This document shows, piece by piece, positions 3,765 through 59,924 of a stretch of 64,000 nt of DNA (position 1 is its first letter; the number at the start of each line of letters is the position of its first letter). Under the pieces are notes generated by a model that made no database searches, was not told the origin of the DNA, and saw only the letters and a program-made list of their open reading frames with translations. A program made the translations under genes and the position numbers. This stretch comes from an uncultured Christensenella sp. (GTDB lineage Bacteria > Bacillota > Clostridia > Christensenellales > UBA1242), in assembly GCA_949282135.1 (NCBI GenBank), contig CASDOR010000027.1:24608-88607 (forward strand), read 5' to 3'.

Positions 3765-3777
3765 TATTACTATTTTA

Positions 3778-13373: not shown

Positions 13374-13387
13374 GTACTATGCAAACT
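13374..13387 (+). repeat. Copy of 14-nt motif GTACTATGCAAACT
   Basis: Identical to the three copies at 46452-46596. It lies in the gap between convergent scpB and the PBP gene. Confidence 0.8.
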
Positions 13388-13396
13388 TTTAAGCCA

Positions 13397-13415
13397 GCTT
13401 TTTAGTATAAAAAGC
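13397..13415. terminator. Bidirectional hairpin between convergent scpB and PBP genes
   Basis: GCTTTTTA-GTA-TAAAAAGC forms a perfect 8-bp stem flanked by A/T runs. Confidence 0.45.
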
Positions 13416-15750: not shown

Positions 15751-17070
15751 ATGGAAAAGAAAAAATTTTATTATATAGAGACCTTTGGTTGTCAAATGAA
15801 CGTTCACGATTCGGAAAAAATTGCTGGGATGTTAATAGATTTAGGTTATTGTGAGACTGCTCAAAAAGAGAGGGCAGATATTATTGTTTTTAATACCTGT
15901 TGCATTAGAGAAACGGCGGAACTCAAAATTATGGCGAAGATAGGAGATTTGAAGGCTCTTAAGAAAAAAAATAAGGAACTAATAATTGTTGTTTGTGGCT
16001 GTATGACGCAACAACAGGGTATGGCGGACTTACTTAAAAAAAGGTTTCCTTTTGTAAACCTCGTTATTGGTACGCATAATTTAGACCTATTAGAGGAATA
16101 CGTAAAGAGTTATACTGGCTCAAAGTTTAAGAGTATTGTCTTAGAAAAAGAGCAAGAAATTACTGAAAATACAAAAATTTATCGCACAAATCATAAAAAC
16201 GCGTTTGTAAATATAATGTATGGTTGTAATAATTTTTGTACATATTGTATTGTGCCTTATGTTAGAGGTAGGGAAAGAAGTAGAAAAGTCGAAGATATCG
16301 TAAGAGAAGTAGAAGAACTTGCAAAAGAAAACAAGTATTCTCAAATAACGCTTCTAGGGCAAAACGTAAATTCTTACGGACTTGACTTTAAGGACAATAA
16401 GACAAACTTTGTCTATTTACTTGATAAACTTTGTAAGATTAAGGGGGATTTTAAAATTAGTTTTATGTCCTCCCATCCAAAAGATTTTTCAAATGAGCTT
16501 ATTGATTTTATCGCAAGTCATGAAAAAATGAGTCGTGCTATACATCTTCCTGTTCAAAGTGGTTCTGACGAAGTTTTAAAGAGAATGAATAGAAGATATA
16601 CATCTAGTCATTATAAGAGCCTAGTTGATGAGATTTACAAAAAAATTAAGGGAGTGTCACTTACAACAGACATCATAGTTGGCTTTCCAGGTGAAAGTGA
16701 AAAAGATTTTAATGACACATGTGACCTGCTACGTTATTGTAAATTTTCAAGCATATTTGGTTTTGTTTATTCTAAGAGAAATGGAACGCCTGCAGCGACT
16801 TTTAGTGACCAAGTGCCATATAAGGTAAAAAAAGAGAGAATTACAAAGCTTTTTGACCTTCAGCATGAAATTCAAAGAATTGAGCTTTCTTCTCTTATTG
16901 GTAAAACTCTAGAGTGCACCATTGAAAGAGATGAAAAAGGAAGGTTTATTGCTAAAACTTTTAACAATAAGTCTATAAAACTAAATGGTGAAAATTACAC
17001 CATAGGAGATAAAAAATCTGTTTTAGTTAAAGAGATTAATAAAAATGAATTAATAGGAGAAATAGCATAA
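15751..17070 (+). CDS. miaB: tRNA-2-methylthio-N6-dimethylallyladenosine synthase
   Basis: 439 aa with the UPF0004 N-domain (ETFGCQMN), a radical-SAM CxxxCxxC (CNNFCTYCIVP) and a TRAM domain. Confidence 0.9.
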   Translation: MEKKKFYYIETFGCQMNVHDSEKIAGMLIDLGYCETAQKERADIIVFNTCCIRETAELKIMAKIGDLKALKKKNKELIIVVCGCMTQQQGMADLLKKRFPFVNLVIGTHNLDLLEEYVKSYTGSKFKSIVLEKEQEITENTKIYRTNHKNAFVNIMYGCNNFCTYCIVPYVRGRERSRKVEDIVREVEELAKENKYSQITLLGQNVNSYGLDFKDNKTNFVYLLDKLCKIKGDFKISFMSSHPKDFSNELIDFIASHEKMSRAIHLPVQSGSDEVLKRMNRRYTSSHYKSLVDEIYKKIKGVSLTTDIIVGFPGESEKDFNDTCDLLRYCKFSSIFGFVYSKRNGTPAATFSDQVPYKVKKERITKLFDLQHEIQRIELSSLIGKTLECTIERDEKGRFIAKTFNNKSIKLNGENYTIGDKKSVLVKEINKNELIGEIA

Positions 17071-17075
17071 CACAA

Positions 17076-19676
17076 ATGAAAGAGAAGAAAAAAGAATATT
17101 CACCAATGATGCAAAGATACTTTAATACTAAAGAGCAATACAAAGATTGTTTGCTTTTTTATCGTTTAGGTGATTTTTATGAGCTTTTCTTTGAGGATGC
17201 AATAATCGCTTCAAAGGTTCTTGATATTGCTTTAACCTCTCGTGCTTGTGGGCTTGAAGAAAAAGCACCTATGTGCGGTGTTCCATATCATGCAGTAGAT
17301 AGTTATATTGCAAAGATCCTTGAAAAAGGGTATAAGGTTGCAATATGTGACCAGCTTTCTACCCCAGTTAAAGGTCAAATTGTTGATAGAGACGTAACTC
17401 GTATAATTACGCCTGGCACAATTATCGAAAGTGATATTTTAAATGAAAATACGACTAATTATATTTTAAGTATTTGCGGCAGTGCAAAAACAAATATTGG
17501 ATGTGCTTTTTGTGACGTGTCTACAGGCGAGTTTAGAGTTTGCGAATTTAGTCACAATACAAAAGAGCAATTAATTGAGTTTTTATCACGTATTAAACCT
17601 GCTGAAATAATCTGCAGAGAAGACTCATATGATTTGTCATTTGATAAAGATATAAAGGCTCTAGAGTTTTTACCAAGATTTTCTAAACAAATAGATTTTG
17701 ATTTTGACTTTGATAATGCAAAAGAACTTATAAAAAAGCAATTTAAAATATCATCTTTGCAGGGGCATGATTTTGCAAAATTAAAGTACGCAATTTCGTC
17801 TGTTGGTGCACTTATAAATTATCTAAATATTACTCAAAAAAGAAGTTTAAATCACATTAATAAGATAATTACAGAAAACAATGATGACTTTATGCATCTT
17901 GATTATAATGCCTGTAAGAATTTGGAGCTTACCGAAAATGTTAGAGATAAGAAGAAAAAAGGTTCGCTTCTTGGTCACCTTAATAAAACGAAGACTGCTA
18001 TGGGATCTAGACTCCTTGAGAAATGGATTTTGCAACCATTACAGCACTCTAATCTTATAAATGAAAGACTTGATTGTGTTGAGGAGCTTTATTATAATTC
18101 AATGCTTTTAAATGATATAACGGAAGTCTTATCTAGCATCAATGATATTGCAAGGGTTTGCTCAAAGATTTCCTATGGGACAATAATGCCTCGTGACTGT
18201 GTGTCGCTAAAGAATTCGCTTGCATCGGTAATAGATTTAGCAGGGCTTGTAAAAGATTTGAAAAGTAAAAAGTTTTTATCTCTTTTTTCTCAAGTTGAAA
18301 GTATAAAAAATATAGAAGAACTGCTAAAAAATGTTTTTGTTGATGACCCTCCAGCTATAACCTCTGGTGGCGGATTTATTAGGTTAGATTTTAATAAAGA
18401 GCTAAAAGAACTTCGAGATATGTCACATAATGCAAAGCAGTGGCTTGCAAATTTAGAAACAAAAGAAAGAGAACAGACAGGGATCAAAAATTTAAAAATA
18501 GGTTACAGTAGAGTTTTTGGTTATTTTATAGAAGTAAACAAATCACAAGAGAGTCTTGTCCCATACAATTATCAAAGGAGACAGACAATTTCAAATCATG
18601 AAAGATTTGTTACTGACGAGCTAAAAGAAATAGAAAATAAGTTACTTAATTCGGAAGAACTTGCAAATAAACTAGAAAATAAAATTTATGATGAAATAAA
18701 GGAAAAACTTAAAGGCATAGTTTCAATAATTCAAGATACGGCAAACGATGTTGCTTATCTTGACGTCGTTTGTGCTCTTAGTCGTGTCGCTCAAGACTAT
18801 AACTATGTAAGACCAAAGTTAAGTGATAAGGCAAAATATATTAAAATACTTGACGGAAGGCATCCAATAATTGAAGCCAATCCAAAAGTGGAGTTGTTTG
18901 TTCCAAACGATGCATATTTAAATGAGTCAGATGATAGGACTCTTATTATTACTGGTCCAAATATGGCTGGAAAAAGCACATATATGAGGCAAATTGCGCT
19001 AATAGTCATTATGGCACACATAGGTTCTTTTGTACCAGCAAGTGAGGCTGAAATTTGTATTGTAGATAGAATTTTTACACGTATTGGCGCTAGTGATGAC
19101 TTAAATAATGGTCAAAGTACCTTTATGGTAGAAATGGTTGAAGTGGCAAATATCTTAAATAACGCAACAAGTAAAAGCCTTGTCCTTCTTGATGAGGTTG
19201 GGCGAGGAACAGCAACATATGATGGTATGAGTATTGCTTGGGCGGTTCTTGAATACATTTCTCAAAGAATTAGGTGTAAAACATTATTTTCTACGCATTA
19301 TCATGAAATAACAACTCTTGAAGGTAAACTTGATGGTGTGAAAAATTATCGAATTACAGTAAAAGAATTTAATAATTCTATAATTTTTTTAAGAAAAATT
19401 CAAAGAGGTAGTGCAAATAGAAGTTTTGGTATTGAGGTTGCAAGTTTATCTGGAATTTACGATGAAATAATTAAACGAGCAAAAGATATTTTAAATCAAC
19501 TAGAAAAAAACTCTGTTAAGTTTGAGATAAAAGAAAGTGGACAGGACTTACAAACTTTAAGTCAGGAAAGAAAGGACAATATAATAAATCAGTTGAAAAA
19601 TATTGACGTAAATAAGCTTAGTCCAATGGAGGCATTTGAAATTATTGTAGAGCTTAATAAAGAGGTTAATAATTAA
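17076..19676 (+). CDS. mutS: DNA mismatch repair protein MutS
   Basis: 866 aa with N-terminal TPMMQRY..GDFYELF, Walker A GPNMAGKST, and STFMVEM..DEVGRGT. Confidence 0.97.
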   Translation: MKEKKKEYSPMMQRYFNTKEQYKDCLLFYRLGDFYELFFEDAIIASKVLDIALTSRACGLEEKAPMCGVPYHAVDSYIAKILEKGYKVAICDQLSTPVKGQIVDRDVTRIITPGTIIESDILNENTTNYILSICGSAKTNIGCAFCDVSTGEFRVCEFSHNTKEQLIEFLSRIKPAEIICREDSYDLSFDKDIKALEFLPRFSKQIDFDFDFDNAKELIKKQFKISSLQGHDFAKLKYAISSVGALINYLNITQKRSLNHINKIITENNDDFMHLDYNACKNLELTENVRDKKKKGSLLGHLNKTKTAMGSRLLEKWILQPLQHSNLINERLDCVEELYYNSMLLNDITEVLSSINDIARVCSKISYGTIMPRDCVSLKNSLASVIDLAGLVKDLKSKKFLSLFSQVESIKNIEELLKNVFVDDPPAITSGGGFIRLDFNKELKELRDMSHNAKQWLANLETKEREQTGIKNLKIGYSRVFGYFIEVNKSQESLVPYNYQRRQTISNHERFVTDELKEIENKLLNSEELANKLENKIYDEIKEKLKGIVSIIQDTANDVAYLDVVCALSRVAQDYNYVRPKLSDKAKYIKILDGRHPIIEANPKVELFVPNDAYLNESDDRTLIITGPNMAGKSTYMRQIALIVIMAHIGSFVPASEAEICIVDRIFTRIGASDDLNNGQSTFMVEMVEVANILNNATSKSLVLLDEVGRGTATYDGMSIAWAVLEYISQRIRCKTLFSTHYHEITTLEGKLDGVKNYRITVKEFNNSIIFLRKIQRGSANRSFGIEVASLSGIYDEIIKRAKDILNQLEKNSVKFEIKESGQDLQTLSQERKDNIINQLKNIDVNKLSPMEAFEIIVELNKEVNN

Positions 19677-42397: not shown

Positions 42398-43024
42398 TTA
42401 TTTTATATGTCTTATTAGTCCTATAACTTTACCTAGTATTTTTACGTTTTTTGCGTATATTGGTTCCATTAAGTCGTTTTCAGGTTGTAATCTTATTCTG
42501 TCTTTTTCCTTATAAAACCTCTTTACGGTTACTGAATCGTCAATCATTGCAACTATAATTTCGGTATTTTCAGCAGTCTCTTGTTTTCTAACCAAAACTT
42601 TATCATTATTTAAAATGCCTGCATTAATCATGCTATCTCCTTTAATTGTAAGCATAAATACATCATTACTTGCTATATTAAATAAGTTATCAGAAATCTC
42701 ATATACATCATCATAGTTTATGCTTGCAAAAATAGGTGTACCTGCCGCGACGTCACCTAATAGTGGTACTTTTTTTATATTTTGCTTGGAATTTGCTATT
42801 AAGTTTTTAGTGAGCTCAATGCTTCTACTTTTATTTGAATCTCGTTTAATTAAATTTTTTTCCTCGAGTTTGTTTAAATAATAAATAATTGTAGAGGTAG
42901 AAGCAATTGATAAAATTTCCATTAATTCACGTACAGTAGGAGGGAATCCCTTTTCATTTATAAAGGTTTCAATCACATTATATATATAAGATAACCTTTG
43001 TTCAGAATCTCTTTTATTTTTCAT
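42398..43024 (-). CDS. lexA: LexA repressor
   Basis: 208 aa with an N-terminal wHTH (GFPPTVRELMEIL), an Ala-Gly cleavage site (LLGDVAAGTP), and catalytic Ser (GDSMINAGI) and Lys (VLVRKQ). Confidence 0.95.
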   Translation of the reverse strand: MKNKRDSEQRLSYIYNVIETFINEKGFPPTVRELMEILSIASTSTIIYYLNKLEEKNLIKRDSNKSRSIELTKNLIANSKQNIKKVPLLGDVAAGTPIFASINYDDVYEISDNLFNIASNDVFMLTIKGDSMINAGILNNDKVLVRKQETAENTEIIVAMIDDSVTVKRFYKEKDRIRLQPENDLMEPIYAKNVKILGKVIGLIRHIK

Positions 43025-43104: not shown

Positions 43105-44157
43105 TTATTCATCTCTTAGTTTTATTACATTTGCCACATTTCTACGTGCATCTTCTGAGATTGCAGCATAGTGTTTTTTTGTTGTGTTGACATCTTTATG
43201 TCCTAGTACGTCAGCCACAATATAAATGTCTTTAGTTTCTCTATATAAATTTGTACCATAAGTACTGCGTAATTTGTGGGGAGTAATATGTTTTAATGGT
43301 ACACATGCTTCACTATATTTTTTAACTAATTTTTCTACAGCTCTAACAGAAATTCTTTTATTTTGAATGGACAAAAATAAAGCCTTTTCATTTTTATCGA
43401 CATTTTCATTATTTAGTCTTTCCTCTAAGTAGTCTCTTAGGGCAGAGGCTACTTCGTCAGAAAAATATAATACAACCTGACTTCCACCTTTTCTTGTAAT
43501 CTTAAAACCATTTACTTCAAAGTCAAGGTCTTCAATATTAAGACCAACACATTCGCTAACACGAATTCCAGTGCCTAGCAATAGTGTAAGTAATGCGACA
43601 TCTCTTTTTTTTGTAATTTCATTATAAGACTTTTGTCTCTTTGAAAAATTTTGAGGGCTTTCTGCTTCATTAATAAGCTTTACAATTTCATCAACTTCAA
43701 GTCTTATAATTTCTTTTTCTCTAATCTTTGGTGTATCAATTTTTGCTGAGACATTAGAGGCAATTTTATCTTTCTTATAAAAATAGTTAAGTAAGCATCT
43801 TATTGAAGAGAGTTTTCTAGCCTTTGCTGAAGCGGCATTAGATAATATTTTTTTACTGTCCTTGCTATAAGAAGATAAATAGTTTAAGTAATATTCAATA
43901 TGAGAAGATGAAATTTTAGACAAATCATCATAATCTAACTCTTCTACATTTTTATCTTTAAACTCAAAAATCTCATTTATTAAAAACTCAAAAAAACTTT
44001 TTATGTCATGCAAATACTCTAGTTGTGTTAGAGTAGTGGTTTTATTTTCAATTCCAACAATAAAGTCCGAGCAAAAAGAGGGAAGTGTTGTTAGAATTTC
44101 ACCAATTTTAACTTTATTTTTAAAATCTCTTTCTTTGAAATAATTATTTTCATTCAT
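43105..44157 (-). CDS. Tyrosine site-specific recombinase (Xer-like, 350 aa)
   Basis: It has an N-terminal SAM-like core-binding domain and a complete catalytic set: R (GTGIRVSE), K (ITRKGG), HxxR (HKLRST), H (LGHKDV), Y (KKHYA). It lies outside the prophage repeats and immediately upstream of lexA. Confidence 0.85.
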   Translation of the reverse strand: MNENNYFKERDFKNKVKIGEILTTLPSFCSDFIVGIENKTTTLTQLEYLHDIKSFFEFLINEIFEFKDKNVEELDYDDLSKISSSHIEYYLNYLSSYSKDSKKILSNAASAKARKLSSIRCLLNYFYKKDKIASNVSAKIDTPKIREKEIIRLEVDEIVKLINEAESPQNFSKRQKSYNEITKKRDVALLTLLLGTGIRVSECVGLNIEDLDFEVNGFKITRKGGSQVVLYFSDEVASALRDYLEERLNNENVDKNEKALFLSIQNKRISVRAVEKLVKKYSEACVPLKHITPHKLRSTYGTNLYRETKDIYIVADVLGHKDVNTTKKHYAAISEDARRNVANVIKLRDE

Positions 44158-45549: not shown

Positions 45550-46446
45550 ATGAATGAGGAATTAATTAGAGATTTTGCTTTGAGAAAAGATAAGTCAAAA
45601 GTGCAGGAGTTTTATAATATTGCACTTAATATTTTGACGTCTGCATTAGATGAGCTTAATAATAAAAGTGAGAATGGTGTTATTAAGCTGTCTGAAGAAT
45701 CGACAAGAATTTTCCCAATGGGAGATTATACTAACGATACGTTCATAGATCAAACTGGTGAATTAGAAATTGTAGTTGCAACAAATGATGCACAAATTAT
45801 TTTAAACACTACCAATTATTCAAATGAGATTAAAAATAAAAAAAACAAGAAAAACACTGAAATATCACAAAGAGGGACAATTGATATAATAGTTTATAAA
45901 TTACTCGAAATATTAGTTTCATACTTTAGCGAAGATACGACATTGTTTTTGACCAACGATGGCATAAAAATTCTTTGTCTTAAAGAGTATGGATTTAAAA
46001 TGCTAATTAGATTTGCAACATATAGTGTTGATGATGAAAATGCAACCTTATTTTTTTGGGAGCCTGTAGCAAAGGTTCAAAATCCAGTAAACTTATTTGT
46101 TTATAATGAGCAGATGGAAAATAAAGACAAAGAAACTAATGGAAATTATAAAAGATTAGTTAGAATTTATAAAAATATAAGAAAAACCATTTTGCTTAAC
46201 AAGTGGTCAATGAGTAGTGATCTTAATAAGTATTTTGTTGAACTTATAATATATAATATTCCAAGTAATTTAATGTTAGGGAATGACATAGTAAAAATTT
46301 TCTATAAGTCCTACAACTATCTTGTAAATTGCAATATTTTAAGTTTTGCTTCCTTTGATAATAGACATATAAATACGTTTAGTTTAGCTAAAATAACATA
46401 CTATAAAATTAACAATTATATAAGATTGCTTAAAAAATTAGTTTAG
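45550..46446 (+). CDS. Pol-beta-fold nucleotidyltransferase-like protein (CD-NTase/OAS-like layout, acidic triad degenerate)
   Basis: 298 aa. The G[S/D]-x9-13-[DE]h[DE]h layout is present as MGDYTNDTFIDQTGELEIVV. A downstream helical segment (NGNYKRLVRIYKNIRK) is typical of OAS/CD-NTase-like proteins. No clear third Asp and no effector gene nearby. Confidence 0.3.
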   Translation: MNEELIRDFALRKDKSKVQEFYNIALNILTSALDELNNKSENGVIKLSEESTRIFPMGDYTNDTFIDQTGELEIVVATNDAQIILNTTNYSNEIKNKKNKKNTEISQRGTIDIIVYKLLEILVSYFSEDTTLFLTNDGIKILCLKEYGFKMLIRFATYSVDDENATLFFWEPVAKVQNPVNLFVYNEQMENKDKETNGNYKRLVRIYKNIRKTILLNKWSMSSDLNKYFVELIIYNIPSNLMLGNDIVKIFYKSYNYLVNCNILSFASFDNRHINTFSLAKITYYKINNYIRLLKKLV

Positions 46447-46451: not shown

Positions 46452-46596
46452 GTACTATGCAAACTTATTTATAACAATCTAAGTAAGTACTATGCAAACT
46501 TTTTATTTATAAAAATAAAAATTATATATCTATTATGACTCAAAAATAATTTTTGCAAGATTTGTTTAAAAACTTAAATCAAGTACTATGCAAACT
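46452..46596 (+). repeat. Three direct copies of GTACTATGCAAACT
   Basis: Identical 14-mers at 46452-46465, 46487-46500 and 46583-46596, all in the same orientation, within the ORF-free region left of the prophage. Confidence 0.9.
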
Positions 46597-46965: not shown

Positions 46966-46995
46966 CTATTCGTAAAACCTGTATTTTACGAATAG
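46966..46995. other. attL / dif-like core: perfect 12-6-12 inverted repeat CTATTCGTAAAA-CCTGTA-TTTTACGAATAG
   Basis: Read directly from the sequence. The right arm plus 4 nt of spacer plus TT (46980-46997) is repeated exactly at 52177-52194. Confidence 0.7.
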
Positions 46996-47000
46996 TTGTT

Positions 47001-47156
47001 CTAATAAGACTCAATAAAATTTTCTACTATTCTTCTTAGTACCTCGCTCCTCCCTTCTTCTTTATTCTTGCATATTTCGTCTAATTTTTTTATTGTTTTT
47101 TGTTTAAGTCTTATTGTTACAACTGCTTTTGGTGGTATTATTGATTTTGTTTTCAT
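47001..47156 (-). CDS. Ribbon-helix-helix (CopG/Arc/MetJ-type) DNA-binding protein, 51 aa (below ORF-track cutoff)
   Basis: Manual translation: MKTKSIIPPKAVVTIRLKQKTIKKLDEICKNKEEGRSEVLRRIVENFIESY. It reads as a beta-strand (VVTIRL), helix, G, helix. SD ggggag, own consensus promoter. The stop lies 4 nt inside the left direct repeat boundary. Confidence 0.6.
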   Translation of the reverse strand: MKTKSIIPPKAVVTIRLKQKTIKKLDEICKNKEEGRSEVLRRIVENFIESY

Positions 47157-47185
47157 TTTTCTCCCCTTTTTTGTATACGTTTATA

Positions 47186-47213
47186 ATTATATTTTATTTT
47201 AATTCTTTGTCAA
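47186..47213 (-). promoter_or_regulatory. Consensus sigma-A promoter driving the RHH gene
   Basis: On the minus strand, TTGACA (47213-47208), a 16-nt spacer, then TATAAT (47191-47186), about 30 nt upstream of the RHH start. Confidence 0.6.
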
Positions 47214-47238
47214 CTACTTTTTTAATTTTTTTCACACC

Positions 47239-47280
47239 AAAAAAAATACCCACTTGCTGACGGGCAAATTATCGCAAGTG
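47239..47280 (-). terminator. Hairpin plus T-run separating the Rep gene from the RHH transcription unit
   Basis: On the minus strand, CACTTGC-16 nt-GCAAGTG is followed by GGTATTTTTTTT. Confidence 0.45.
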
Positions 47281-47353
47281 CGGTATACCTAGCGAATAAA
47301 GCTTTAGCGACTGAGCGGAGCAGAAACTAACGTACAGCTGTATGCTCTACCCT

Positions 47354-47367
47354 ACTTTGCATAGTAC
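47354..47367 (-). repeat. Inverted, one-mismatch copy of the 14-nt motif (GTACTATGCAAAGT) inside the prophage non-coding region
   Basis: The plus strand reads ACTTTGCATAGTAC. The reverse complement differs from the host copies only at position 13. Confidence 0.8.
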
Positions 47368-47473
47368 TATAATTATATGCATTACATAAGTAATTCTCTT
47401 ACCCAGCATTTCCTGACGGGCTTATGCCGGCTCGGGCGCCGCTCGATAATAAAAAAAAAGAATAGTATTTCTA

Positions 47474-48493
47474 CTACTCTTTTTCTAGATAACGTTTTAG
47501 TACCTTAATCTTATTTTCTTTGGTCCTTTCTTGTACTGCTCTGTATTCTTCTCTGTTTAGATCCGTCTTGCTTAAGATTATCTCTTCTATGCGTTTTTGA
47601 GCTTCTTTTCTTCTTTGTTTTATTTCTTCCATTGTTTCGTGGTTTTCGACGTCGTACAGCTTGTCAAAATACCTTGCCGGTCTTACAGCTAGAGCTTTTC
47701 CTCGTTTGTTTAGTATAATTTCGTCATACTTGTATATATTGTCTTTATTTTCTTCGTAATAATCTCTCGCTATACCTGGTCTACGTGACATTCGAACGAA
47801 CTCTGGCTCTATGCCTAATTCTTCATATATTTTTGCTCCTTGTCCTTTTTGTTTTTTCATGACATACCTTGCGACATACCCGGCGCTGTCCCATGTTACA
47901 CTGCCTATACGTATTATTCCTTTCCCCCATAATTTTTGTATGTAATCGCTCGTCCATTGCACTTCACCCTTGTGGCTTTTTTCTGCTAATGTTAGGTCCG
48001 GTATGTGTGTGTTAAAAAGTATTGCGTGGTAATGTGGTCTTCCGCGTTTGTCTCCGTACTCACCGCACGAATAATATCTTGTATGCATTTCATAGTGCCT
48101 AGTTTGGTTGGTGTTTAGGTTGTTCAAGAAGTCCTTTAGGTCCTTCGGTCTTAGAGTTTCGACTATTTCTTGCTTGACTACCTCTCCGGTTTCTGTGTCT
48201 ATGTCTTGGATTATATTATATGGTAAGTGGTTGTTATCGTATGTTAGAGTGACGAAATAGTTCTCCTGGTACTTTTCAGCTTCGAGCATGCACCTTGTTG
48301 CCCACATGCGTGCATGGTCCAGTCTACATCCAATACAATTTCCGCATTGGACTTCTTGTACTGGGTATAGTCTACCTTTTATTTTTGCCCATGCGTTGCG
48401 TATAACTTCATTGTATTTTAAGATTTTAAGGTCTTGTTTTCCGTTATCTTTTATGCCTAAATTTACAGCTTTGAGTGGATGGTAACAGCTCAT
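47474..48493 (-). CDS. Microvirus replication initiation protein (VP4 / gpA-like rolling-circle Rep)
   Basis: 339 aa with MSCYHPL.. N-terminus, CGNCIGCR zinc knuckle, motif 1 FVTLTY, HUH motif RPHYHAILF and Tyr motif AGYVARYVMKK. SD aaggagg. Confidence 0.85.
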   Translation of the reverse strand: MSCYHPLKAVNLGIKDNGKQDLKILKYNEVIRNAWAKIKGRLYPVQEVQCGNCIGCRLDHARMWATRCMLEAEKYQENYFVTLTYDNNHLPYNIIQDIDTETGEVVKQEIVETLRPKDLKDFLNNLNTNQTRHYEMHTRYYSCGEYGDKRGRPHYHAILFNTHIPDLTLAEKSHKGEVQWTSDYIQKLWGKGIIRIGSVTWDSAGYVARYVMKKQKGQGAKIYEELGIEPEFVRMSRRPGIARDYYEENKDNIYKYDEIILNKRGKALAVRPARYFDKLYDVENHETMEEIKQRRKEAQKRIEEIILSKTDLNREEYRAVQERTKENKIKVLKRYLEKE

Positions 48494-48524
48494 TTTTTAA
48501 CCTCCTTAAAACCTCTTTCAGAGG

Positions 48525-48560
48525 GTCGGCACAATTCCCTCTTGTTGTAATTGTGCCGAC
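48525..48560. other. Perfect 12-bp stem-loop between VP2 and VP4 genes
   Basis: GTCGGCACAATT-12 nt-AATTGTGCCGAC. A second small hairpin (CCTCT-ttc-AGAGG, 48512-48524) is adjacent. Confidence 0.6.
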
Positions 48561-48609
48561 TGACACAAAATGTCCTTTTTTTTGTACATTTTGCACAAAA
48601 AATTTTGTG

Positions 48610-49032
48610 TCATTTGCCAAACCCTATATTGTAGTTTTTTGTTCCTTTTCCGCCTGCTATTATTTCTATCACTCTAATTGCGTTTGAGGCAAATTTTCCG
48701 CTACTTCCAGCACTTGCGTTGCTGTTTGCTGCAGTTCCGCTTGCTGTTGCTCCTCCAGGAGTATATGCTCCCATTCCTCCAGTTGCTGTAAGTATAGGGT
48801 TAATACCTGCAGCTTTGAGGTCTGCTACTTCTCTTTGGTGTGCTGTATTACTTAATCTTTCTTGATATTTTCTATTTATTTCTGCTTGTTCTGCATTGAA
48901 TAATCTGTTGATTTCTGCCTGTTCTGCGTTGTATGCACGGTCTCTTGATGCGCTGCCCCATCCTAGTGCATCCCCTAGATCGTTCCAAAATCCTCCGTAG
49001 TTGTTGCTATTTCCTATTGCTGATGTTGCCAT
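48610..49032 (-). CDS. Microvirus minor capsid / DNA pilot protein (VP2-like)
   Basis: 140 aa, Gly/Ala/Asn-rich, with the [17 protein letters not shown] signature seen in gokushovirus-type VP2. It has an internal duplication NAEQAEINR x2. SD aggagg. It sits directly after VP1. Confidence 0.6.
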
Positions 49033-49044
49033 ATTGTCCTCCTA

Positions 49045-50742
49045 TTAGTGATGGTCTATAAGTCCTGGTATGCTTGTAACAGGCATTGGTCGAGTGCACT
49101 TATAAGAAAAATAAAAGTCAGCTATCCATTGGTCTTCCACGGTTGATTGTACTGCAAGTGTACGGTCTACGTTGGCGGTTGTTTCTTGTATCCACGTTGG
49201 TCCTAAGATTGGTAAGCTTGAGTAATTGTCACCATAGTGCCAGCTGTCTAGACTCTGCGCGTAAGTGCTTCTTAGTGCCCCGGTTATTTGGTTAGGCTTA
49301 TACCTATATTCAGCCCATGCTTCTTGGTAGCCGAATGCTTCATTGTCACTTGCGTTTCCTTGAGCATATATTTCCTTGTTAAGAATTGCCTGTTCGCCTA
49401 TGTTCGCTAGACTTGGGAAGTAGAAATCTTCTCTTTTTGTCCTGGAGAACATTTTGTTTATGCCTTGCTGGTAAGAGTGTAAGGTTCTTACAACTGCTAA
49501 GCCTAAGATTATTTCGTGTTCGGTGAACGATTTTGTGAATGCTATTTCTTGGTCGGTTGTGTATGAGAATGCTGCAGTATTACCTTGAGGTGTTGTTGTA
49601 TCAGTACTAGAGGTTTGTAAAACCTGGTAGTTATTGATAGGTATACGTTTGCCGCCTAGGTATTCCGGTCTTTGCTGTCTTGCGTCAGGACTCGTAATTC
49701 CAAAGTGTGCTTTTATGATTTCGATATATCTTGTACCGCCTCTTGCGTCTTTTTCTAGCATTCTTTGTAATGCAAAGCTCATACGTAATTGGTTGACAGT
49801 ACTTGCTGTTGCTTGACTTAGATCTGTAATTACACCGCTATATTCTTTTCTTTCGTCTAGTCCTAGCATATATTTTGTTCCTTCGTTACTTCCCATATTT
49901 ATTTTTTCTGCGTCACTATTTGCACCTTTTTTAACGTCTTGGCCATTTACACTATATAATCCTAGAGTGTTATTTACTGTATTACTATGTTGTCCTCCTA
50001 GGTATACTTTTGATCCTTCTGGATTGCTAAAATAATTAATTCCGATTGCATTTCCATTGCCTATTACTGGAGCAGTATCTCCTAGTGGCAATAGTACATC
50101 TGGTCCTTTTTGTGGTTCTGGTAGGGCGCTGGTAAAATAGTCGTGATATTTTGCGGCTTTGAATGGCATGCCTCCGCATTGTAAGTCTGTTACATAATCT
50201 GTACCATTATTACCGGTTGTTGCACTGTCTCCAAGTGATAGAGCTGCTGGGTCTTGTAAGTTCTGGTCCCTAAACCAATCGTTAATGGTTAGAGTATATG
50301 CGCGTGGAAATAATGCGCTTACAGATATGCCACTTACTCCGGTTGGTATGCCCATATGGTCCATTATTGTCCCTTTTTGCCAGCCTCCACTAGGTGCTGT
50401 TATTTGTGGTATTTCGTATTCTGTCTCTTCTTCCCATGCTGAGGTTGTATTTTCGCCCATGAAGTTCTTCCAATGCTCCCATACAAGACGATTTGGCACA
50501 GCAAAAAAGTATATATCAAGGTATGCTTGGTCCATTACTGGGTGTATTGGTGTTGAGCCTCTGAGAAGTGTTCCAACGTTGATTTTTATTGTGTCTCCTG
50601 GTAATACTTCGTCTACTAGAATTGGTATAATTTCTCCGGTATTCATTGATGTGAGTTGCTTATGTGAGCGGTCAAACGTGCTTCTTGGTATGTCAATATT
50701 TGTTTGATTAATTGCAAATCTATTAGTTGCGTTGATGTTCAT
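49045..50742 (-). CDS. Microvirus major capsid protein (VP1 / F-like)
   Basis: 565 aa. The N-terminal block (IPRSTFDRSHKQLTSMNTGEIIPILVDEVLPGDT) is the hallmark VP1 start, and the size is typical. SD ggaggt. Confidence 0.85.
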   Translation of the reverse strand: MNINATNRFAINQTNIDIPRSTFDRSHKQLTSMNTGEIIPILVDEVLPGDTIKINVGTLLRGSTPIHPVMDQAYLDIYFFAVPNRLVWEHWKNFMGENTTSAWEEETEYEIPQITAPSGGWQKGTIMDHMGIPTGVSGISVSALFPRAYTLTINDWFRDQNLQDPAALSLGDSATTGNNGTDYVTDLQCGGMPFKAAKYHDYFTSALPEPQKGPDVLLPLGDTAPVIGNGNAIGINYFSNPEGSKVYLGGQHSNTVNNTLGLYSVNGQDVKKGANSDAEKINMGSNEGTKYMLGLDERKEYSGVITDLSQATASTVNQLRMSFALQRMLEKDARGGTRYIEIIKAHFGITSPDARQQRPEYLGGKRIPINNYQVLQTSSTDTTTPQGNTAAFSYTTDQEIAFTKSFTEHEIILGLAVVRTLHSYQQGINKMFSRTKREDFYFPSLANIGEQAILNKEIYAQGNASDNEAFGYQEAWAEYRYKPNQITGALRSTYAQSLDSWHYGDNYSSLPILGPTWIQETTANVDRTLAVQSTVEDQWIADFYFSYKCTRPMPVTSIPGLIDHH

Positions 50743-51241
50743 TTGTTGTTGTACCTCCGCTATTAGTTGTTTGCGTTGTAGTTGTAGTTACTGTTTCTTT
50801 GGTTTCTTCTTTTAGCTTTTTGCCTGTTGCTTTTTCGTATACTGCTGCATAAGTTCCATTTACTATACTTTCGACGTAATTTTGTACTGAGTAGTCTAGA
50901 GCTTTGCGGACTTCGAGTGGTTCTTGTGCAAATAGGTTTTCTCCCTTAATCCTTAGATTCTCCCACTCTGCTACAGTGCGTGGTAATTGTGTTAAGTCTA
51001 GGTAACTACCATTTCGTTTGTTGAGTAGTTCCGTCTCACCAGCTGCTACTCTCTTGAGTAAGTTTTCAATTTTAGTTTCTTCGAGTGGTGCTTGTGTTCT
51101 GTCATAGATATTTTTTGTTTTTTCAGTTTTTACGAGCACTTTGACACCTTTTTTTATTTGCATTTCATAGACCGGGATTTCTTTTTCTCCGCTTGGTGTT
51201 GGTGCGTTGGTGTAATAGTTATAATTTTTTCTAAATTCCAT
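50723..51241 (-). CDS. Microvirus internal scaffolding protein (VP3-like)
   Basis: 172 aa. YLDLTQLPRTVAEWENLRIKGENLFAQEPLEVRKAL resembles the conserved VP3 C-terminal region. It overlaps the VP1 start by 20 nt. Confidence 0.55.
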   Translation of the reverse strand: MEFRKNYNYYTNAPTPSGEKEIPVYEMQIKKGVKVLVKTEKTKNIYDRTQAPLEETKIENLLKRVAAGETELLNKRNGSYLDLTQLPRTVAEWENLRIKGENLFAQEPLEVRKALDYSVQNYVESIVNGTYAAVYEKATGKKLKEETKETVTTTTTQTTNSGGTTTNEHQRN

Positions 51242-51243
51242 AA

Positions 51244-51495
51244 TTACACCTCTTCTTTCAATTCTGATAGATTTGTGATAAATCTTACTTGTGGTACAAT
51301 TTCCCCGGTTTCGTCATTATAACTACCTACGCAATATAGTTGTTTGTCTTTGTAGTTTGTTTTAACTTCGTTATCTCCTGGATTATTTATCATATTTTTT
51401 ACGCTTCTGATTGCACTTCCGTCATTGACTCCGGCAAATGGTGTTGTCATTGCTCCTACTATAGTATCTTTGATTGTATATAATTTCATATTCAT
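51244..51495 (-). CDS. Hypothetical phage protein (83 aa)
   Basis: Strong SD (aaggag). It starts MNMKLYTIKDTIVGAMTTPFAGVNDGSAIRSVKNM.., which resembles a small non-structural protein family I recall from gut microviruses (not verifiable here). Confidence 0.55.
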   Translation of the reverse strand: MNMKLYTIKDTIVGAMTTPFAGVNDGSAIRSVKNMINNPGDNEVKTNYKDKQLYCVGSYNDETGEIVPQVRFITNLSELKEEV

Positions 51496-51591
51496 TTCTT
51501 ATTTCTCCTTTTTATTTTGTTTTTGTGATATTTCCGTTTTTGTCTATATATCCTATTATTTCGCCATCTTCTGTAACTGTGTCTATTATTC

Positions 51592-51717
51592 TCATAGTCT
51601 TGTACCTCCGCGTGTGTTCATTGGCGTGATATTTATTTTTTTTGTACTACTTGCTGTGTTTCGGAATATTTTTTTATCTAGGTTCTGATTTTTTATCTTC
51701 TTTCGTTTGTTTGCCAT
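51592..51717 (-). CDS. Highly basic 41-aa peptide (candidate J/ORF8-like DNA-packaging protein)
   Basis: Manual translation: MANKRKKIKNQNLDKKIFRNTASSTKKINITPMNTRGGTRL (12 K/R, 1 acidic). SD aaggag lies 7 nt upstream. Its stop overlaps (ATGA) the start of a further 27-aa ORF (51512-51595) that has SD ggaggt. Confidence 0.45.
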   Translation of the reverse strand: MANKRKKIKNQNLDKKIFRNTASSTKKINITPMNTRGGTRL

Positions 51718-51835
51718 CTTTTTCTCCTTTTAATTCTTTTTTTATTTTTTGTAATTTTTCTTGGTCTCTCTCTTCCCAGCTTAAGCTTTTTTGATACAAG
51801 TATTCTAGTATTGCCTGTTCTCTTGTCATTTTCAT
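51674..51835 (-). CDS. Hypothetical 53-aa charged protein
   Basis: Manual translation: MKMTREQAILEYLYQKSLSWEERDQEKLQKIKKELKGEKDGKQTKEDKKSEPR. It starts 4 nt after the stop of the 84-aa ORF and overlaps the basic-peptide ORF in another frame. Confidence 0.35.
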   Translation of the reverse strand: MKMTREQAILEYLYQKSLSWEERDQEKLQKIKKELKGEKDGKQTKEDKKSEPR

Positions 51836-51838
51836 TTT

Positions 51839-52093
51839 TTACAATTCCTTTTTTATATAATTTTTGATTGTGTTTTGTAATGTCTTATTATTAATTTCTA
51901 AGTTTTGTATTTTGCTTAGATTTTGTATTTGCGTTATACAATTTTTTAGTTGTTCGTTAATAATTTTATCTATCTTTTCAATTTCTTCACTGTTTGTTAC
52001 TTTCTTTTTTTTCTTGAATAATGCTATTAGTGAGAATGTCATAGATAATACTATTACTACTATTTGTAATATGTATAAGACTGTTTCTAACAT
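51839..52093 (-). CDS. Small membrane protein (N-terminal TM helix + coiled coil), first gene of the phage operon
   Basis: 84 aa. TVLYILQIVVIVLSMTFSLIALF is followed by KKKKK and a helical repeat-like tail. SD aaaggaaa. Confidence 0.55.
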   Translation of the reverse strand: MLETVLYILQIVVIVLSMTFSLIALFKKKKKVTNSEEIEKIDKIINEQLKNCITQIQNLSKIQNLEINNKTLQNTIKNYIKKEL

Positions 52094-52162
52094 TTTTGTA
52101 TTTCCTTTATATTATATTTGTATACACTTTTTGACTTTTAAAAAAGAGAATGTATTCTCTTA

Positions 52163-52192
52163 GTATTCGGGAAGATTGTATTTTACGAATAG
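52163..52192. other. attR: half-degenerate copy of the dif-like core (GTATTCGGGAAG-ATTGTA-TTTTACGAATAG)
   Basis: The right arm is identical to attL. The left arm matches the attL left arm at 8 of 12 positions. The spacer differs in its first two nucleotides. Confidence 0.65.
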
Positions 52193-57561: not shown

Positions 57562-57601
57562 TTATATACGGAGAGTATCTAAATAATCTAGTTTTTAAAT
57601 A

Positions 57602-57640
57602 AAATGCACTACTAGGACTATGCCCTGTAGTGCATTTTTC
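57602..57640. terminator. Bidirectional hairpin between permease and rnhA
   Basis: 11-bp perfect stem AAATGCACTAC / GTAGTGCATTT with a 14-nt loop and flanking A/T runs. Confidence 0.6.
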
Positions 57641-57668
57641 ATCTATTTAAATTGGTCTAAATAAAAAT

Positions 57669-58112
57669 TTAAGTAACATTTAATTTTAGAATTTCATTTC
57701 TTGCTATCTTATCACATCGGTTATTTTTTTCATTATCTGCATGTCCTTTTACTTTTATAAATTCAACTTTATGTAGAGATAATAAATTTAGTAACTCATC
57801 CCATAAGTCTTTATTAAGGACTTCCTTTTTATTAGCAGTTTTCCAATTATTGACTTGCCATGTATTAAGCCAATTATTATTTATAGCATTACAAACATAG
57901 GCTGAGTCACTGTATAATTTAACATGACATTTTTCTTTGAGTGCTTTTAGTGATACAATTACAGCCAATAATTCCATACGATTATTGGTTGTATTCTTTT
58001 CGCCTCCGGAAATGACTTTTTCTTTTCCATTAAATTCAAGTATAGCACAATATCCTCCAGGGCCAGGATTGCCAGAGCAAGCCCCATCAGTGTAAATTTC
58101 TACTTCTTTCAT
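57669..58112 (-). CDS. rnhA: Ribonuclease HI
   Basis: 147 aa with EIYTDGACSGNPGPGGY, NNRMEL and HADNEKNNRCDKIA (DEDD catalytic pattern). Confidence 0.92.
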   Translation of the reverse strand: MKEVEIYTDGACSGNPGPGGYCAILEFNGKEKVISGGEKNTTNNRMELLAVIVSLKALKEKCHVKLYSDSAYVCNAINNNWLNTWQVNNWKTANKKEVLNKDLWDELLNLLSLHKVEFIKVKGHADNEKNNRCDKIARNEILKLNVT

Positions 58113-58231
58113 AGTTTAATTATACCTTAAATTCAGAAAAATAAGCAAATTTTTTACAGCAAAAATTCTTTTAAAATACTAGTTTTTTTATAAAAGCACA
58201 ACAAAAAAATAGGCTTCAACCTATTTTATTA

Positions 58232-58305
58232 TGGCAGGGGAAGAGGGATTCGAACCCCCATCGATGGTTTTGGAGACCATAGCTCTACCATTGAACTATT
58301 CCCCT
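58232..58305 (-). tRNA. tRNA-Trp (anticodon CCA), CCA end encoded
   Basis: Manual cloverleaf of the 74-nt reverse complement: AGGGGAA-TA-GTTC-AATGGTA-GAGC-T-ATGGT-CTCCAAA-ACCAT-CGAT-GGGGG-TTCGAAT-CCCTC-TTCCCCT-G-CCA. A hairpin plus T-run follows at about 58204-58228. Confidence 0.85.
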
Positions 58306-58370
58306 TTATTTTTAGAGCATTATTATTTTACAATAATGCCCCAATATTGTCAATTATTAATAAATACTTT

Positions 58371-59924
58371 TTATTTTGCAACGTCAGAAGCTCTAGTTTC
58401 TCGTATAACATTTACCTTAATTTGACCAGGATATTGCAACTCGTTTTCAATCTTTCTTGCTATATCTTTTGCTAGGAAAACAATTGCACTATCGCTTACT
58501 TCATTTGGCTTAACAATTATTCTTATTTCTCTACCTGCTTGAATTGCATACGACTTGTCAACTCCCTTAAAACTATTTGCAATTTTTTCAAGATTTTCAA
58601 GTCTTTTAATATACGCATCAAGTAACTCTCTTCTAGCACCTGGTCTACTACTAGATATTGCATCAGCAGTTTGTACAATAATTGCTTCAAGAGAATGGAA
58701 TTCTACGTCTCCGTGATGAGCCTCAATACAATGAATCACTTCTTGAGATTCTTTATATTTTCTAGCAATGTCAACTCCTATTGAAACGTGTGTTCCCTCT
58801 TGTTCTTGGTCTAGAGCCTTACCAATATCATGAAGCAAACCGCCACGTTTTGCAATTTTTGCATTTGCACCAAGTTCTTCTGCAAGAAGTCCTGCCAAAT
58901 GACAAACTTCCAAACTATGCTTTAAAACATTTTGTCCATAACTTGTCCTAAACTTAAGTCTACCAAGTATCTTAACAAGCTCTGGGTGAAGCCCTATAAT
59001 ACCTGCCTCATAAACTGCATTTTCACCAGCTTCTTTAACCATTGCGTCAACATCTTTTTGTGCTTTTTCAACTATTTCTTCAATACGTGCAGGATGAATT
59101 CTCCCATCAAGTATTAATTTTTCTAGTGCAACCCTTGCTATTTCTCTTCTATATGGGTCAAACGCTGAAAGAACAACTGCCTCTGGGGTGTCATCTATTA
59201 TAAGGTCAACACCTGTTGCGTTTTCTATAGCACGTATATTTCTTCCTTCCCTACCTATAATTCTGCCCTTCAATTCATCATTTGGAAGTGGTACAACAGT
59301 AACTGTAATTTCAGATGTTATATTCGTAGCACACCTTTGTACAGCAAGAGTTAAAACTTCCCTTGCCTTTTTCTCTGCTGTCTCTACTGCCTCATCTTCC
59401 ATTTTTCTCACCAAGCTAGCACAATCGTGTTTTGCTTGCTCAACAAACATATCGGTAAGTTGTTTTTTTGCTTCTTCTTTTGTCATGCCAGAAGCTTTTT
59501 CAAGAGCCAAAGCAACTTTTTCGTTAGCTTTATCTAGTTCTTCCTGAGCCCTTTCTAATTCAATTTCTTTTTCTTTTACCTGATTAAATGTTGTGTCTAA
59601 TGTTTCCGATCTCTTATCTAGAGCTTCTTCTTTTCGTGTGAGTGATTCTTCTTTTAGTAGTAAACGACTTTCTGATTTTGAAATTTCATTATAACGTTCT
59701 GCAATTTCGGCATCGCATTTTTCTTTTAAATTATGGATTTCTTCTTTTGCCTCTAATATTGCTTCTTTTTTTGCTGTTTTTGCCTCAGCATAGGCATTTT
59801 CTAGTATTTTAGCTGCATTGCTTCTTGACTGAGATGATTTTCTTGAGATTAGTAAAACTGTTAATCCAGCACCACCACCTAAACATAGAACACAAGCAAC
59901 TAAAAGCCATACAAAATGTATCAT
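58371..59924 (-). CDS. rny: Ribonuclease Y
   Basis: 517 aa with an N-terminal TM anchor, a coiled coil, a KH domain ([13 protein letters not shown]) and an HD domain (LLHDIGKA). Confidence 0.95.

Follow-up and report, generated by a model that had tools for sequence, protein, structure and literature searches.

The microvirus prophage in the window (the whole 64-kb stretch of DNA analysed here) adjoins a perfect 30-bp palindrome that is probably acted on by the XerS-like tyrosine recombinase next to it and most likely serves the host as chromosomal dif site; the microvirus would be an IMEX that borrows the host Xer system. The evidence bearing directly on this consists of the architecture of the site, an empty attB in a relative, a 5,197-bp insertion, a narrow crossover interval, the lack of a recombinase in the phage, the linkage between site and recombinase gene, the GC skew around the site, and the repeated use of the same site family by phages. 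The first-pass annotation had proposed an Xer/dif-type IMEX, in which the host enzyme would catalyze the exchange, and this reading is now supported by the empty site, the class of the recombinase, the linkage, the skew, and the absent phage recombinase.

A gokushovirus-type prophage without an integrase

The two junctions, the inserted DNA, and its genes are given below.

46966..46995, no strand assigned: attL, the intact host dif-like site, CTATTCGTAAAA-CCTGTA-TTTTACGAATAG, a perfect 12-6-12 palindrome
52163..52192, no strand assigned: attR, a hybrid site, GTATTCGGGAAG-ATTGTA-TTTTACGAATAG, with a degenerate left arm (8/12)
46996..52192, minus strand: inserted DNA, a gokushovirus-type microvirus prophage of 5,197 bp with all genes on the minus strand
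47001..47156, minus strand: RHH (CopG/Arc-like) protein, 51 aa, candidate phage regulator, ending 5 nt from attL; weak RHH_1 match
47474..48493, minus strand: VP4, rolling-circle replication initiator, 339 aa; Pfam REP_ORF2-G2P 9e-19, PHROG 942 1e-107
48610..49032, minus strand: VP2-like DNA pilot protein, 140 aa; PHROGs pilot-protein families, E down to 1e-25
49045..50742, minus strand: VP1 major capsid protein, 565 aa; Pfam Phage_F 4e-171
50723..51241, minus strand: VP3 internal scaffolding protein, 172 aa; Pfam Chlamy_scaf 8.5e-21
51244..51495, minus strand: VP5, 83 aa; Pfam Phage_ORF5 2.4e-17
51674..52093, minus strand: two small phage ORFs, 53 aa and 84 aa; marginal PHROG match only

With VP1, VP2, VP3, a VP4 Rep, and VP5 encoded in 5,197 bp, a size within the 4.5-6 kb range of the group, the element belongs to the gokushovirus-type Microviridae. 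The closest microviruses in GenBank are genomes from rodent faeces, with VP1 identities of ~60%. The boundaries given for the inserted DNA are one of several equivalent placements, as attL and attR share 18 nt. The 51-aa RHH protein matched transcriptional repressor families in PHROGs (E 7e-6 to 1e-3), and small RHH ORFs were found at the corresponding position in the prophages L174 and L301. At the opposite end of the element, the 84-aa ORF starts 70 nt from attR. The non-coding, GC-richer stretch at 47157-47473 folded no better than shuffled sequences (z = -1.4).

A scan of all prophage ORFs against Pfam and PHROGs returned no integrase or recombinase domain, in agreement with the first-pass annotation, which had described the element as encoding none. 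An Rfam scan of the window returned three tRNAs only, none of them near the junctions (the nearest at 28 kb and 58 kb). Classical temperate-phage integration, with an integrase of the phage's own and an attB in a tRNA gene, was rejected because the element has no integrase and the junctions have no tRNA.

Searches for a free circular form of the phage were negative: the attP junction was not found in a scan of IMG/VR, and one JGI metagenome scan gave 7 matches, all to an unrelated conserved element without phage or xer genes. The contig L168 (5,193 bp, identical VP1), which comes from another sample, was considered as a candidate free phage and rejected, since it is the integrated form broken at the palindrome; the prophage junction recurs in it. 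Contigs tend to break at the palindrome. The site was absent from 80 IMG/VR microviruses related by VP1 (≤50% identity) and from five GenBank microviruses (~60%), and a relaxed site scan of these genomes gave matches that were no commoner than in shuffled sequence.

Junctions, empty site and crossover

Base-by-base comparison showed that attR and attL have identical right arms and identical last four spacer bases, and that their left arms agree at 8 of 12 positions. The earlier description of a perfect 12-6-12 attL and a half-degenerate copy at attR was thus correct to the base, including the arm counts. Two inverted arms around a 6-nt central region constitute a dif-type architecture, in which the central region measures 6-8 bp. 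The search for the 30-mer and its arms that had been advised was run in the 64-kb window, where the exact arm 12-mer occurs only at attL and attR; allowing one mismatch added one unrelated copy, at 2682. The chance expectation was 0.83 matches, and 4 matches were reached in none of 100 shuffles. Perfect 12-6-12 palindromes were expected 0.04 times per window (100 first-order Markov simulations) and two are present, the second of which, at 3219, is unrelated in sequence to attL.

The window belongs to a metagenomic contig of 102.6 kb (ENA ERZ16268139 scaffold_463). The site without the phage was found in L003, a conspecific contig from another sample, which has a 98% identical recombinase, the same gene order, and no phage. 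In a blastn comparison of the window with L003, both flanks were ~97% identical, the two alignments overlapped by 18 nt, and the size of the insertion was exactly 5,197 bp. The uninterrupted site in L003 reads CTATTCGTAAAACCTGTATTTTACGAATAG, then TTTATGACAATAAAG...; it joins attL directly to the right flank of attR, which continues in the window as it does at the empty site. Because this empty site equals attL, attB is the perfect palindrome; the attB deduced in the first-pass annotation, for which a comparison with uninfected relatives had been proposed, was the identical 30-mer. In a sister species (L004; recombinase 87% identical, flanks ~79%), the site TTATTCGTAAAACCTGTATTTTACGAATAG is identical to the attL 30-mer at 29 of 30 positions, and the spacer region around it has otherwise diverged while the palindrome was kept. 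An insertion at a dif-type site, with attL equal to attB and with a hybrid attR to which the element contributed a part, is the arrangement that characterizes an IMEX.

That the palindrome arose by chance or forms a generic hairpin, for instance a transcription terminator or operator, and that the junction repeat is coincidental or an assembly artefact, could be argued from the abundance of imperfect palindromes in AT-rich genomes, from the second, unrelated perfect 12-6-12 palindrome at 3219, and from the breakage of contigs at the palindrome. This explanation is effectively refuted, its remaining probability being negligible: the palindrome has an exact match at the conspecific empty site, the same prophage junction is present in L168 from another sample, seven independent prophages follow a common junction logic, the number of such palindromes expected by chance is only 0.04, and a T-run terminator context is absent.

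Comparison with the empty site further showed that the left arm of attL and its first two spacer bases (CC) are host-derived, and that the degenerate left arm of attR and its first two spacer bases (AT) are phage-derived. Because attL has the host CC and attR the phage AT, the crossover occurred to the right of spacer position 2 (window orientation), inside the 18-nt identity TGTATTTTACGAATAGTT that is common to attL and attR. This stretch is made up of TGTA, the right arm, and 2 flanking nt, and is the overlap of the flank alignments with L003. The place of crossover is hence the last four spacer bases or their boundary with the shared right arm, and not the vicinity of the left edge of the spacer, where it had initially been placed. 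Since the crossover falls within the 18-nt identity, the origin of that stretch is unassignable in both attL and attR. The attP deduced from the junctions is GTATTCGGGAAG-ATTGTA-TTTTACGAATAG, and the corresponding attP junction would read ...GAACAA CTATTCGTAAAA TACAAT CTTCCCGAATAC TAAGAGAATAC...; both are deductions because the searches turned up no free circle of the phage itself.

The adjoining XerS-like recombinase

The enzyme proposed to act on the site is encoded to the left of attL.

43105..44157, minus strand: host XerS-like tyrosine recombinase, 350 aa, proposed enzyme on the site; Pfam Phage_integrase 1e-33

The gene lies 2,809 bp from attL and is transcribed away from the site, and in the window species serS and one other gene occupy the 2.8 kb in between. 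The 350-aa protein contains the R-K-H-R-H-Y catalytic set of the Xer group, so that the tyrosine recombinase recognized in the first reading, with its full R-K-HxxR-H-Y set and its distance of 2.8 kb, was correctly identified. In an alignment of 37 members (35-53% identity), R199, K223, H294, R297, and H320 were invariant and Y330 was conserved in ≥90%. Among the NCBIfam models, XerS gave the highest score (197 bits), followed by XerA (166), XerC (150), and XerD (144). The alignment to the XerS model covered positions 6-355 of 360, and its 197 bits lie below the cutoff of 267. The nearest solved structures are those of XerA and XerD, and XerH was a weak match (33 bits).

XerS was likewise the best model for 14 close and 37 diverse relatives (35-53% identity), all of which scored below the cutoff; the best XerS E-value among the diverse relatives was 4e-69, which we estimate at ~233 bits and which is also less than 267. 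Because all members match XerS best yet remain below its cutoff, they form a distinct XerS-like family and not XerS proper. The earlier suggestion of a possibly single-recombinase Xer system stood as far as the Xer type and the best-scoring model are concerned, and did not extend to XerS/difSL itself, given the score below the cutoff and a site that is not difSL. The family is large, with at least 8,000 close homologues of the 350-aa recombinase and 776 clusters at 50% identity (E ≤ 1e-30). The gene order serS-xer-lexA is kept in relatives, and no mobile-element genes were found there.

A site-gene module across Clostridia

Scanning a genome collection with the family alignment gave at least 584 matching stretches, from which 80 loci of different species were taken. 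These were mostly from uncultured Clostridia and included MAGs labelled Christensenellaceae, Lachnospiraceae, and Roseburia. Together with L003 and L004, this made 82 loci, of which 48 contained the near-palindrome CTATTCG[C/T]AAAA-N6-TTTT[G/A]CGAATAG, exactly once per locus. In the other 34 no site was found under the criteria of the site finder; many of these had <1.5 kb of upstream sequence or contained more degenerate candidates. The site was always upstream of the recombinase gene in the 46 of the 80 species loci that had one (offsets -28 to -7,243 bp), and in about 20 of these 46 it lay immediately upstream, at 28-700 bp. The likeness to xerS sitting beside its dif, which had been drawn from a single locus, thus holds as a linked module in many species. 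The linkage is common and not universal, because L301 and L030, contigs of one assembly, carry the site and the xer homologue separately.

The variants of the two arms change in step, for example CTTTGCGCAAAA...TTTTGCGCAAAG and CACTTCGCAAAA...TTTTGCGAAGTG. For arm positions 2, 3, and 5, the observed symmetry was reached by none of 2000 species-shuffles, a statistic that is biased upward since the site finder demanded ≥9/12 arm symmetry. Symmetric, co-varying arms are what one protein binding both half-sites would produce. The two arms of XerC/XerD sites are systematically different. The module would represent an XerS-like single-recombinase dif system that is widespread in gut Clostridia and apparently undescribed; our full-text search of the literature found no paper on it, although absence there is no proof of novelty.

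Position relative to the replication terminus

GC skew in the window was strongly positive from 1 to ~46 kb, flat from 46 to 57 kb, and negative after 57 kb, giving a cumulative plateau at 46-57 kb. Up to 57.6 kb most large ORFs lie on the plus strand; beyond that point every one of them is on the minus strand.

57562..58371, no strand assigned: approximate, terminus-like switch of gene orientation and GC skew, ~5.4 kb from attR

In an uninfected chromosome the site would lie ~5.4 kb from the skew and strand switch and not on it. Among the relatives, GC skew over 8 kb was positive to the left and negative to the right of the site in 33 of 39 species loci, and the left skew exceeded the right in 38 of 39. 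The cumulative-skew maximum fell inside the ~21-kb locus, not at its end, in about 30 of 34. The distance from this maximum to the site was no more informative than that from a random point (15 of 34 within 2.5 kb vs. 12.3 expected), and what carries information is the presence of the maximum within the locus as such. The first-pass annotation had proposed a GC-skew check of whether the site coincides with the terminus; the skew flip was found at the site in the relatives, and in the window the site is close to the terminus-like switch, at ~5 kb, and not exactly on it.

A canonical dif was also searched for in the 64-kb window, with Bacillus- and E. coli-type queries: the best match to the Bacillus subtilis dif had 8 mismatches of 28, and the Escherichia coli dif had no match within 8 mismatches. 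One site was present per ~21-kb locus in the 48 relatives' loci that have a site. In L301, trmFO is directly followed by hslV-hslU, with no codV/xerC gene between them. In B. subtilis, a codV/xerC gene lies between trmFO and hslV-hslU. The difference in gene order counts against a canonical XerC in the L301 genome, if only suggestively.

The palindrome could instead be a conserved recombinase target that does not serve dimer resolution, for example as part of a domesticated integrase module or as a place where mobile elements dock, with XerC/XerD acting at another dif. XerC and XerD have been reported to be widespread in Firmicutes (PMC8136486), xerS-like modules resemble the modules with which mobile elements integrate (PMC1914069), our view was limited to 64 kb of the genome, and the site is ~5 kb away from the skew switch. 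We nevertheless consider this unlikely, in view of the terminus-type skew flip at the site in those 33 of 39 species, the single site per locus, and the housekeeping synteny serS-xer-lexA, which is free of mobile-element genes. The 64 kb that contain the skew switch held no canonical dif, the best match to a dif query having 8 mismatches of 28, and the direct succession of trmFO and hslV-hslU in L301, unlike the order in B. subtilis, points in the same direction, although it is suggestive only.

Regarding dif in this group, the one large prediction study was reported to have failed for two Clostridium genomes, C. perfringens and C. beijerinckii (PMC3025954). For C. botulinum, the predicted dif lies ~174 degrees from the skew shift point, according to our own reading of unlabelled columns in a supplementary table of the same study (PMC3025954).

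Further elements in this site family

Sites of this family also flank six additional microvirus prophages (L169/L170, L174, L033, L049, L300, and L301), with VP1 proteins 52-62% identical to that of the window. Each of them, like the inovirus-like element L277, pairs a good-degenerate site at one end with a good-good site at the opposite end. In L169/L170 the sites are at 8607 and 13984 and serS-xer-lexA adjoins. L053 was considered as an empty attB for the L169 host and rejected, since its flanks differ and it comes from a different species. Across the 7 prophages, the good arm contributed by the phage is without exception a 12/12 match to the arm variant of its own host, and the degenerate arm is phage-borne; the variant differs between hosts, those seen being CTATTCGTAAAA, CTTTGCGCAAAA, CTATGCGTAAAA, CTTTTCGCAAAA, CTATTCGCAAAA, CTCTTCGCAAAA, and ATATTCACAAAA. 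Where a contig shows a xer gene, the good-good site is the one on the xer side, and this site directly adjoins the phage regulator gene.

The two sites of L033 are preceded on the left by >50 identical nt, an indication of a tandem copy, in which case the attP can be read directly as ATATTCACAAAA-GGCAAC-TTTTTAAAATAT. L205, a microvirus contig of 4,945 nt without host genes, carries CTATTCGCAAAA-CACAGG-TTTTTGGAATAG in a non-coding gap; its ends showed no terminal overlap demonstrating circularity. The inovirus-like L277 (G2P-type Rep and Zot) is flanked in the same manner and lies beside a host D-Tyr-tRNA deacylase gene.

Another enzyme could have catalyzed the integration, namely the rolling-circle Rep of the phage, which is an HUH nuclease, or some other tyrosine recombinase of the host that happens to recognize the palindrome. 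The proposed pairing of enzyme and site is read from sequence, the phage does encode an HUH-type Rep, and in one genome (L301/L030) the xer homologue is not beside the site. Catalysis by such an enzyme is nonetheless very improbable. The 12-6-12 arrangement is the core architecture of tyrosine-recombinase sites, with the exchange interval at the spacer and the good arm, and the site co-occurs and co-varies with the recombinase family across species. An unrelated phage type, represented by L277, uses the same site family, and enterobacterial gokushoviruses have been found experimentally to be Xer-dependent (PMC7062461).

Proposed mechanism of integration

We propose that the XerS-like recombinase catalyzes the exchange, acting alone on both arms of a site that would otherwise resolve chromosome dimers. 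Dimer resolution of this kind is typically controlled by FtsK. The double-stranded replicative form of the phage would carry attP, in which one arm is the same as the host TTTTACGAATAG, four of the spacer bases match, and the other arm is degenerate. Protomers of the recombinase would sit on both arms of attB and on the one good arm of attP, and would bind more weakly to the degenerate arm. Strand exchange would then take place next to the good arm common to both, at which the neighbouring spacer bases (TGTA) agree; a second exchange is proposed to be disfavoured because the two spacer bases on the other side mismatch. The resulting Holliday junction could be completed by replication, or by the second exchange followed by segregation. 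Completion by replication has been described for some Vibrio IMEXs.

This would give the products seen in the window, an intact good-good attL on the recombinase side and a good-degenerate hybrid attR on the far side. The host would thereby retain a working dif, and the weak arm of attR would probably limit or slow Xer-mediated excision. The order of exchanges and the other steps of this mechanism are modelled on established tyrosine-recombinase and IMEX biology (PMC5357621; PMC7062461).

Implications

Dimer-resolution sites are poorly defined in Clostridia, and a conserved, gene-linked, terminus-located site would offer a testable dif for many gut members of the class. On a broader scale, it is possible, though we rate it at somewhat under an even chance, that the XerS-like recombinase and its symmetric 12-6-12 site are the main single-enzyme dimer-resolution system of much of the Clostridia, that XerS-type systems are old and widespread in Firmicutes, and that a guild of integrase-less phages uses the module for lysogeny. 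If so, XerS-type systems would be an old, widespread Firmicute solution and not a streptococcal peculiarity, and phages of the gokushovirus and inovirus-like types, with perhaps some tailed ones, would reach lysogeny through the module.

Little has been established about which hosts gut gokushoviruses infect and how they live in them. Microvirus prophages in Gram-positive bacteria are given as first reported in 2022, and the parts of that report drawn on here state no integration mechanism for them (PMC9239249). The junctions, the empty site, and the seven independent cases described above suggest a mechanism and give a handle for host prediction: attP arms could serve to assign Gram-positive hosts to many orphan gut microviruses, given that the arm carried by the phage is an exact match to the variant of its host. 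The IMEX principle would also be extended to Firmicutes and to an Xer system with one recombinase, which could lead to Xer-based genetic tools for anaerobes that are hard to manipulate.

Comparison with known systems

Integrase-less microviruses at dif are known; what appears to be new is a gokushovirus IMEX on an apparently undescribed XerS-like module of Clostridia. The enterobacterial gokushovirus prophages EC6098 and relatives integrate at dif via XerC/XerD, as proven in E. coli, and the site that the phage contributes varies in its spacer and XerD arm (Kirchberger and Ochman, 2020; PMC7062461). For microvirus proviruses of Bacteroidetes, integrase-less integration at dif was proposed (Krupovic and Forterre, 2011; PMC3091885). 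The present prophage resembles both in its small, integrase-less, gokushovirus-type genome beside an unchanged dif-type site, in having one canonical flanking site and one that is phage-derived and variable in the spacer and one arm, and in its natural presence/absence polymorphism. It differs from the EC6098 type in its host, an uncultured bacterium of the Gram-positive-lineage Clostridia, in its 30-bp symmetric 12-6-12 palindrome as opposed to the 28-bp asymmetric XerC/XerD dif, in the single XerS-like recombinase implied instead of the XerC/XerD pair, and in the small RHH or HTH regulator that these phages carry next to attP. The site did not qualify as a canonical 28-bp 11-6-11 XerC/XerD dif, judging from the comparison with the B. 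subtilis and E. coli sequences.

The XerS/difSL system is that of Streptococcus and Lactococcus (Le Bourgeois, 2007, PMC1914069; Nolivos, 2010, PMC2965235; reviewed in PMC5357621), and the arms of difSL are TTTCCGAAAA and TTTTCTTGAAA (PMC5357621). Shared features are a recombinase of ~350 aa with XerS as the best profile, a site near the terminus that is linked to the gene on its upstream side (in many relatives, immediately upstream), and arms whose inner ends, bordering the central region, are an A-tract and a T-tract. In contrast to XerS, the proteins described here scored 197 to about 233 bits against an equivalog cutoff of 267, and their family is spread across Clostridia, whereas XerS was described as a hallmark of Streptococcaceae (PMC1914069). 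The site has 30 bp, equal 12-nt arms, and a 6-nt spacer, whereas difSL has 31 bp, unequal arms, and a longer central region; the best ungapped match between them was 17/30. The module is thus not a strict member of XerS/difSL, on account of both the protein score and the site architecture.

The XerL/dif system of Legionellales was found through the IMEX LME-1 (Nicholson, 2022; PMC9765430). As in that case, the dif mimic of an element reveals a terminus-located site and a single dedicated recombinase, and integration yields a modified second site. The recombinase family, host phylum, and type of element differ, and the Legionella system was proven experimentally, whereas the Clostridial module has been read from sequence. 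XerH/difH of Helicobacter and Campylobacter and the archaeal XerA/dif likewise combine a single recombinase with near-palindromic sites, but differ in arms and taxa, XerH being only a weak sequence match (33 bits). The inner arms of difH are GAAAA...TTTTC, and difH lies near its gene.

CTXphi, VGJphi, TLCphi, and the gonococcal genetic island share with the present prophage an attP that has one good and one defective arm or spacer side, so that integration leaves an intact dif and a crippled second site. The inovirus-like L277 uses the Clostridial site family much as the filamentous-phage IMEXs of Vibrio use theirs, but these and the gonococcal island exploit XerC/XerD. CTXphi integrates as folded single-stranded DNA, whereas the recombining DNA form proposed for the microvirus is the double-stranded replicative form.

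Host genes around the landing site

The host genes around the integration site include a possible defence gene and a regulatory gene:

45550-46446 (+): CD_NTase_C-domain protein of 298 aa, encoded in the interval separating serS from the dif-like site
42398-43024 (-): lexA, immediately downstream of the XerS-like recombinase gene (43105-44157, -)

The 298-aa protein matched an NCBIfam anti-phage nucleotidyltransferase weakly, scoring 41 bits where the cutoff is 350, and its gene was also found in the same-species contig with an empty site (L003) and in the sister species (L004). It may represent a defence gene adjoining the phage landing site. The serS-xer-lexA synteny was present in several species (the window, L003, L004, and the microvirus-bearing contig L169 at 16044-17866), and it is conceivable that the adjacency of lexA ties the SOS regulator to the dimer-resolution or IMEX locus. 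In L301, another contig with a microvirus prophage at this site family, trmFO (GIDA) was directly followed by hslV and hslU (1506-4581), with no codV/xerC gene between them. In Bacillus subtilis, a codV/xerC gene lies at this position. The L301 gene order gives a slight hint that canonical xerC may be missing from the L301 genome.

A 14-mer, GTACTATGCAAACT, recurred in a single orientation in the stretch leading from the dif-like site towards the recombinase. The occurrences in the window were as follows:

46452-46465, 46487-46500, and 46583-46596 (+): copies of the 14-mer
13374-13387 (+): further copy
47354-47367 (-): near-copy with one mismatch, inside the prophage in a phage non-coding region

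In L003 and L004/L005, the orthologous spacers contained five to six copies. L006-L010, L024, and L033 had a lone copy, either perfect or differing at one position; in L007 and L033 the copy was at most about 400 bp from the site. The repeats could constitute a protein-binding array (for an accessory factor, terminator-like, or an operator).

Microviruses at the site

Small regulator genes directly adjoined the good arm of attP in four microviruses:

Window, 47001-47156 (-): small RHH (CopG/Arc-like) gene
L174, 5263-5403: small RHH (CopG/Arc-like) gene
L301, about 13270-13410: small RHH (CopG/Arc-like) gene
L169, 13602-13859: HTH_3 (Xre-like) gene in place of the RHH gene

This arrangement looks like a minimal lysogeny-control module; to our knowledge, no such module has been described for microviruses.

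Contigs L167 (6031-6057), L168, and L300 ended inside the perfect 30-bp palindrome, where assemblies have a tendency to break. Through such breaks, surveys of metagenome-assembled genomes would miss junctions between prophage and host as well as dif sites of this family. In the microvirus contig L033, the two sites (within 1-76 and 5250-5314) were preceded on their left by over 50 nt of identical sequence, which suggests either that the prophage is present in tandem or that a circular junction has been joined to host DNA. If so, the L033 site at 65 would be attP observed directly.

Related and unrelated sequences

A second perfect 12-6-12 palindrome in the window (3219-3248; region AATAATTATGCA-AAAGGT-ATTGCATAATTAT) had a sequence unrelated to that of the dif-like site and may be an operator or terminator hairpin. 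Seven JGI metagenome contigs from unrelated environments (L302-L308) shared GGGTTCGTAAAA-GTATAA-CTTCCCGAATAC followed by GGGTATAATGCAACC. This is a conserved element, promoter-like, that matched the attP search pattern by accident; no phage or xer genes were found near it in the seven contigs.

The pattern CTATTCGYAAAA-N6-TTTT was present in at least 120 viral contigs (L175-L294, IMG/VR, 30-62 kb; e.g., L233 at 8409-8438), 47 of which shared CTATTCGCAAAA-CCTAAC-TTTTCCGAATAG (11/12 symmetric) and 27 CTATTCGCAAAA-CCCTTG-TTTTGCGTAATG. Large, presumably tailed, phages may also use this family of sites, either to integrate or to resolve multimers; alternatively, its presence may reflect host DNA included in these contigs. 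Among the large-viral-contig loci examined, tblastn turned up nothing closely related to the XerS-like recombinase; the sole matches were two weak ones to tyrosine recombinases, in L198 and in L289 (about 10 kb from the L289 site).

The site family also flanked an inovirus-like element in L277, which has a host gene for D-Tyr-tRNA deacylase as its neighbour:

606-635 and 5956-5985: flanking sites, one degenerate and one good copy
799-1743: G2P-type Rep
4563-5183: Zot

This element is a Clostridia counterpart of filamentous-phage IMEXs.
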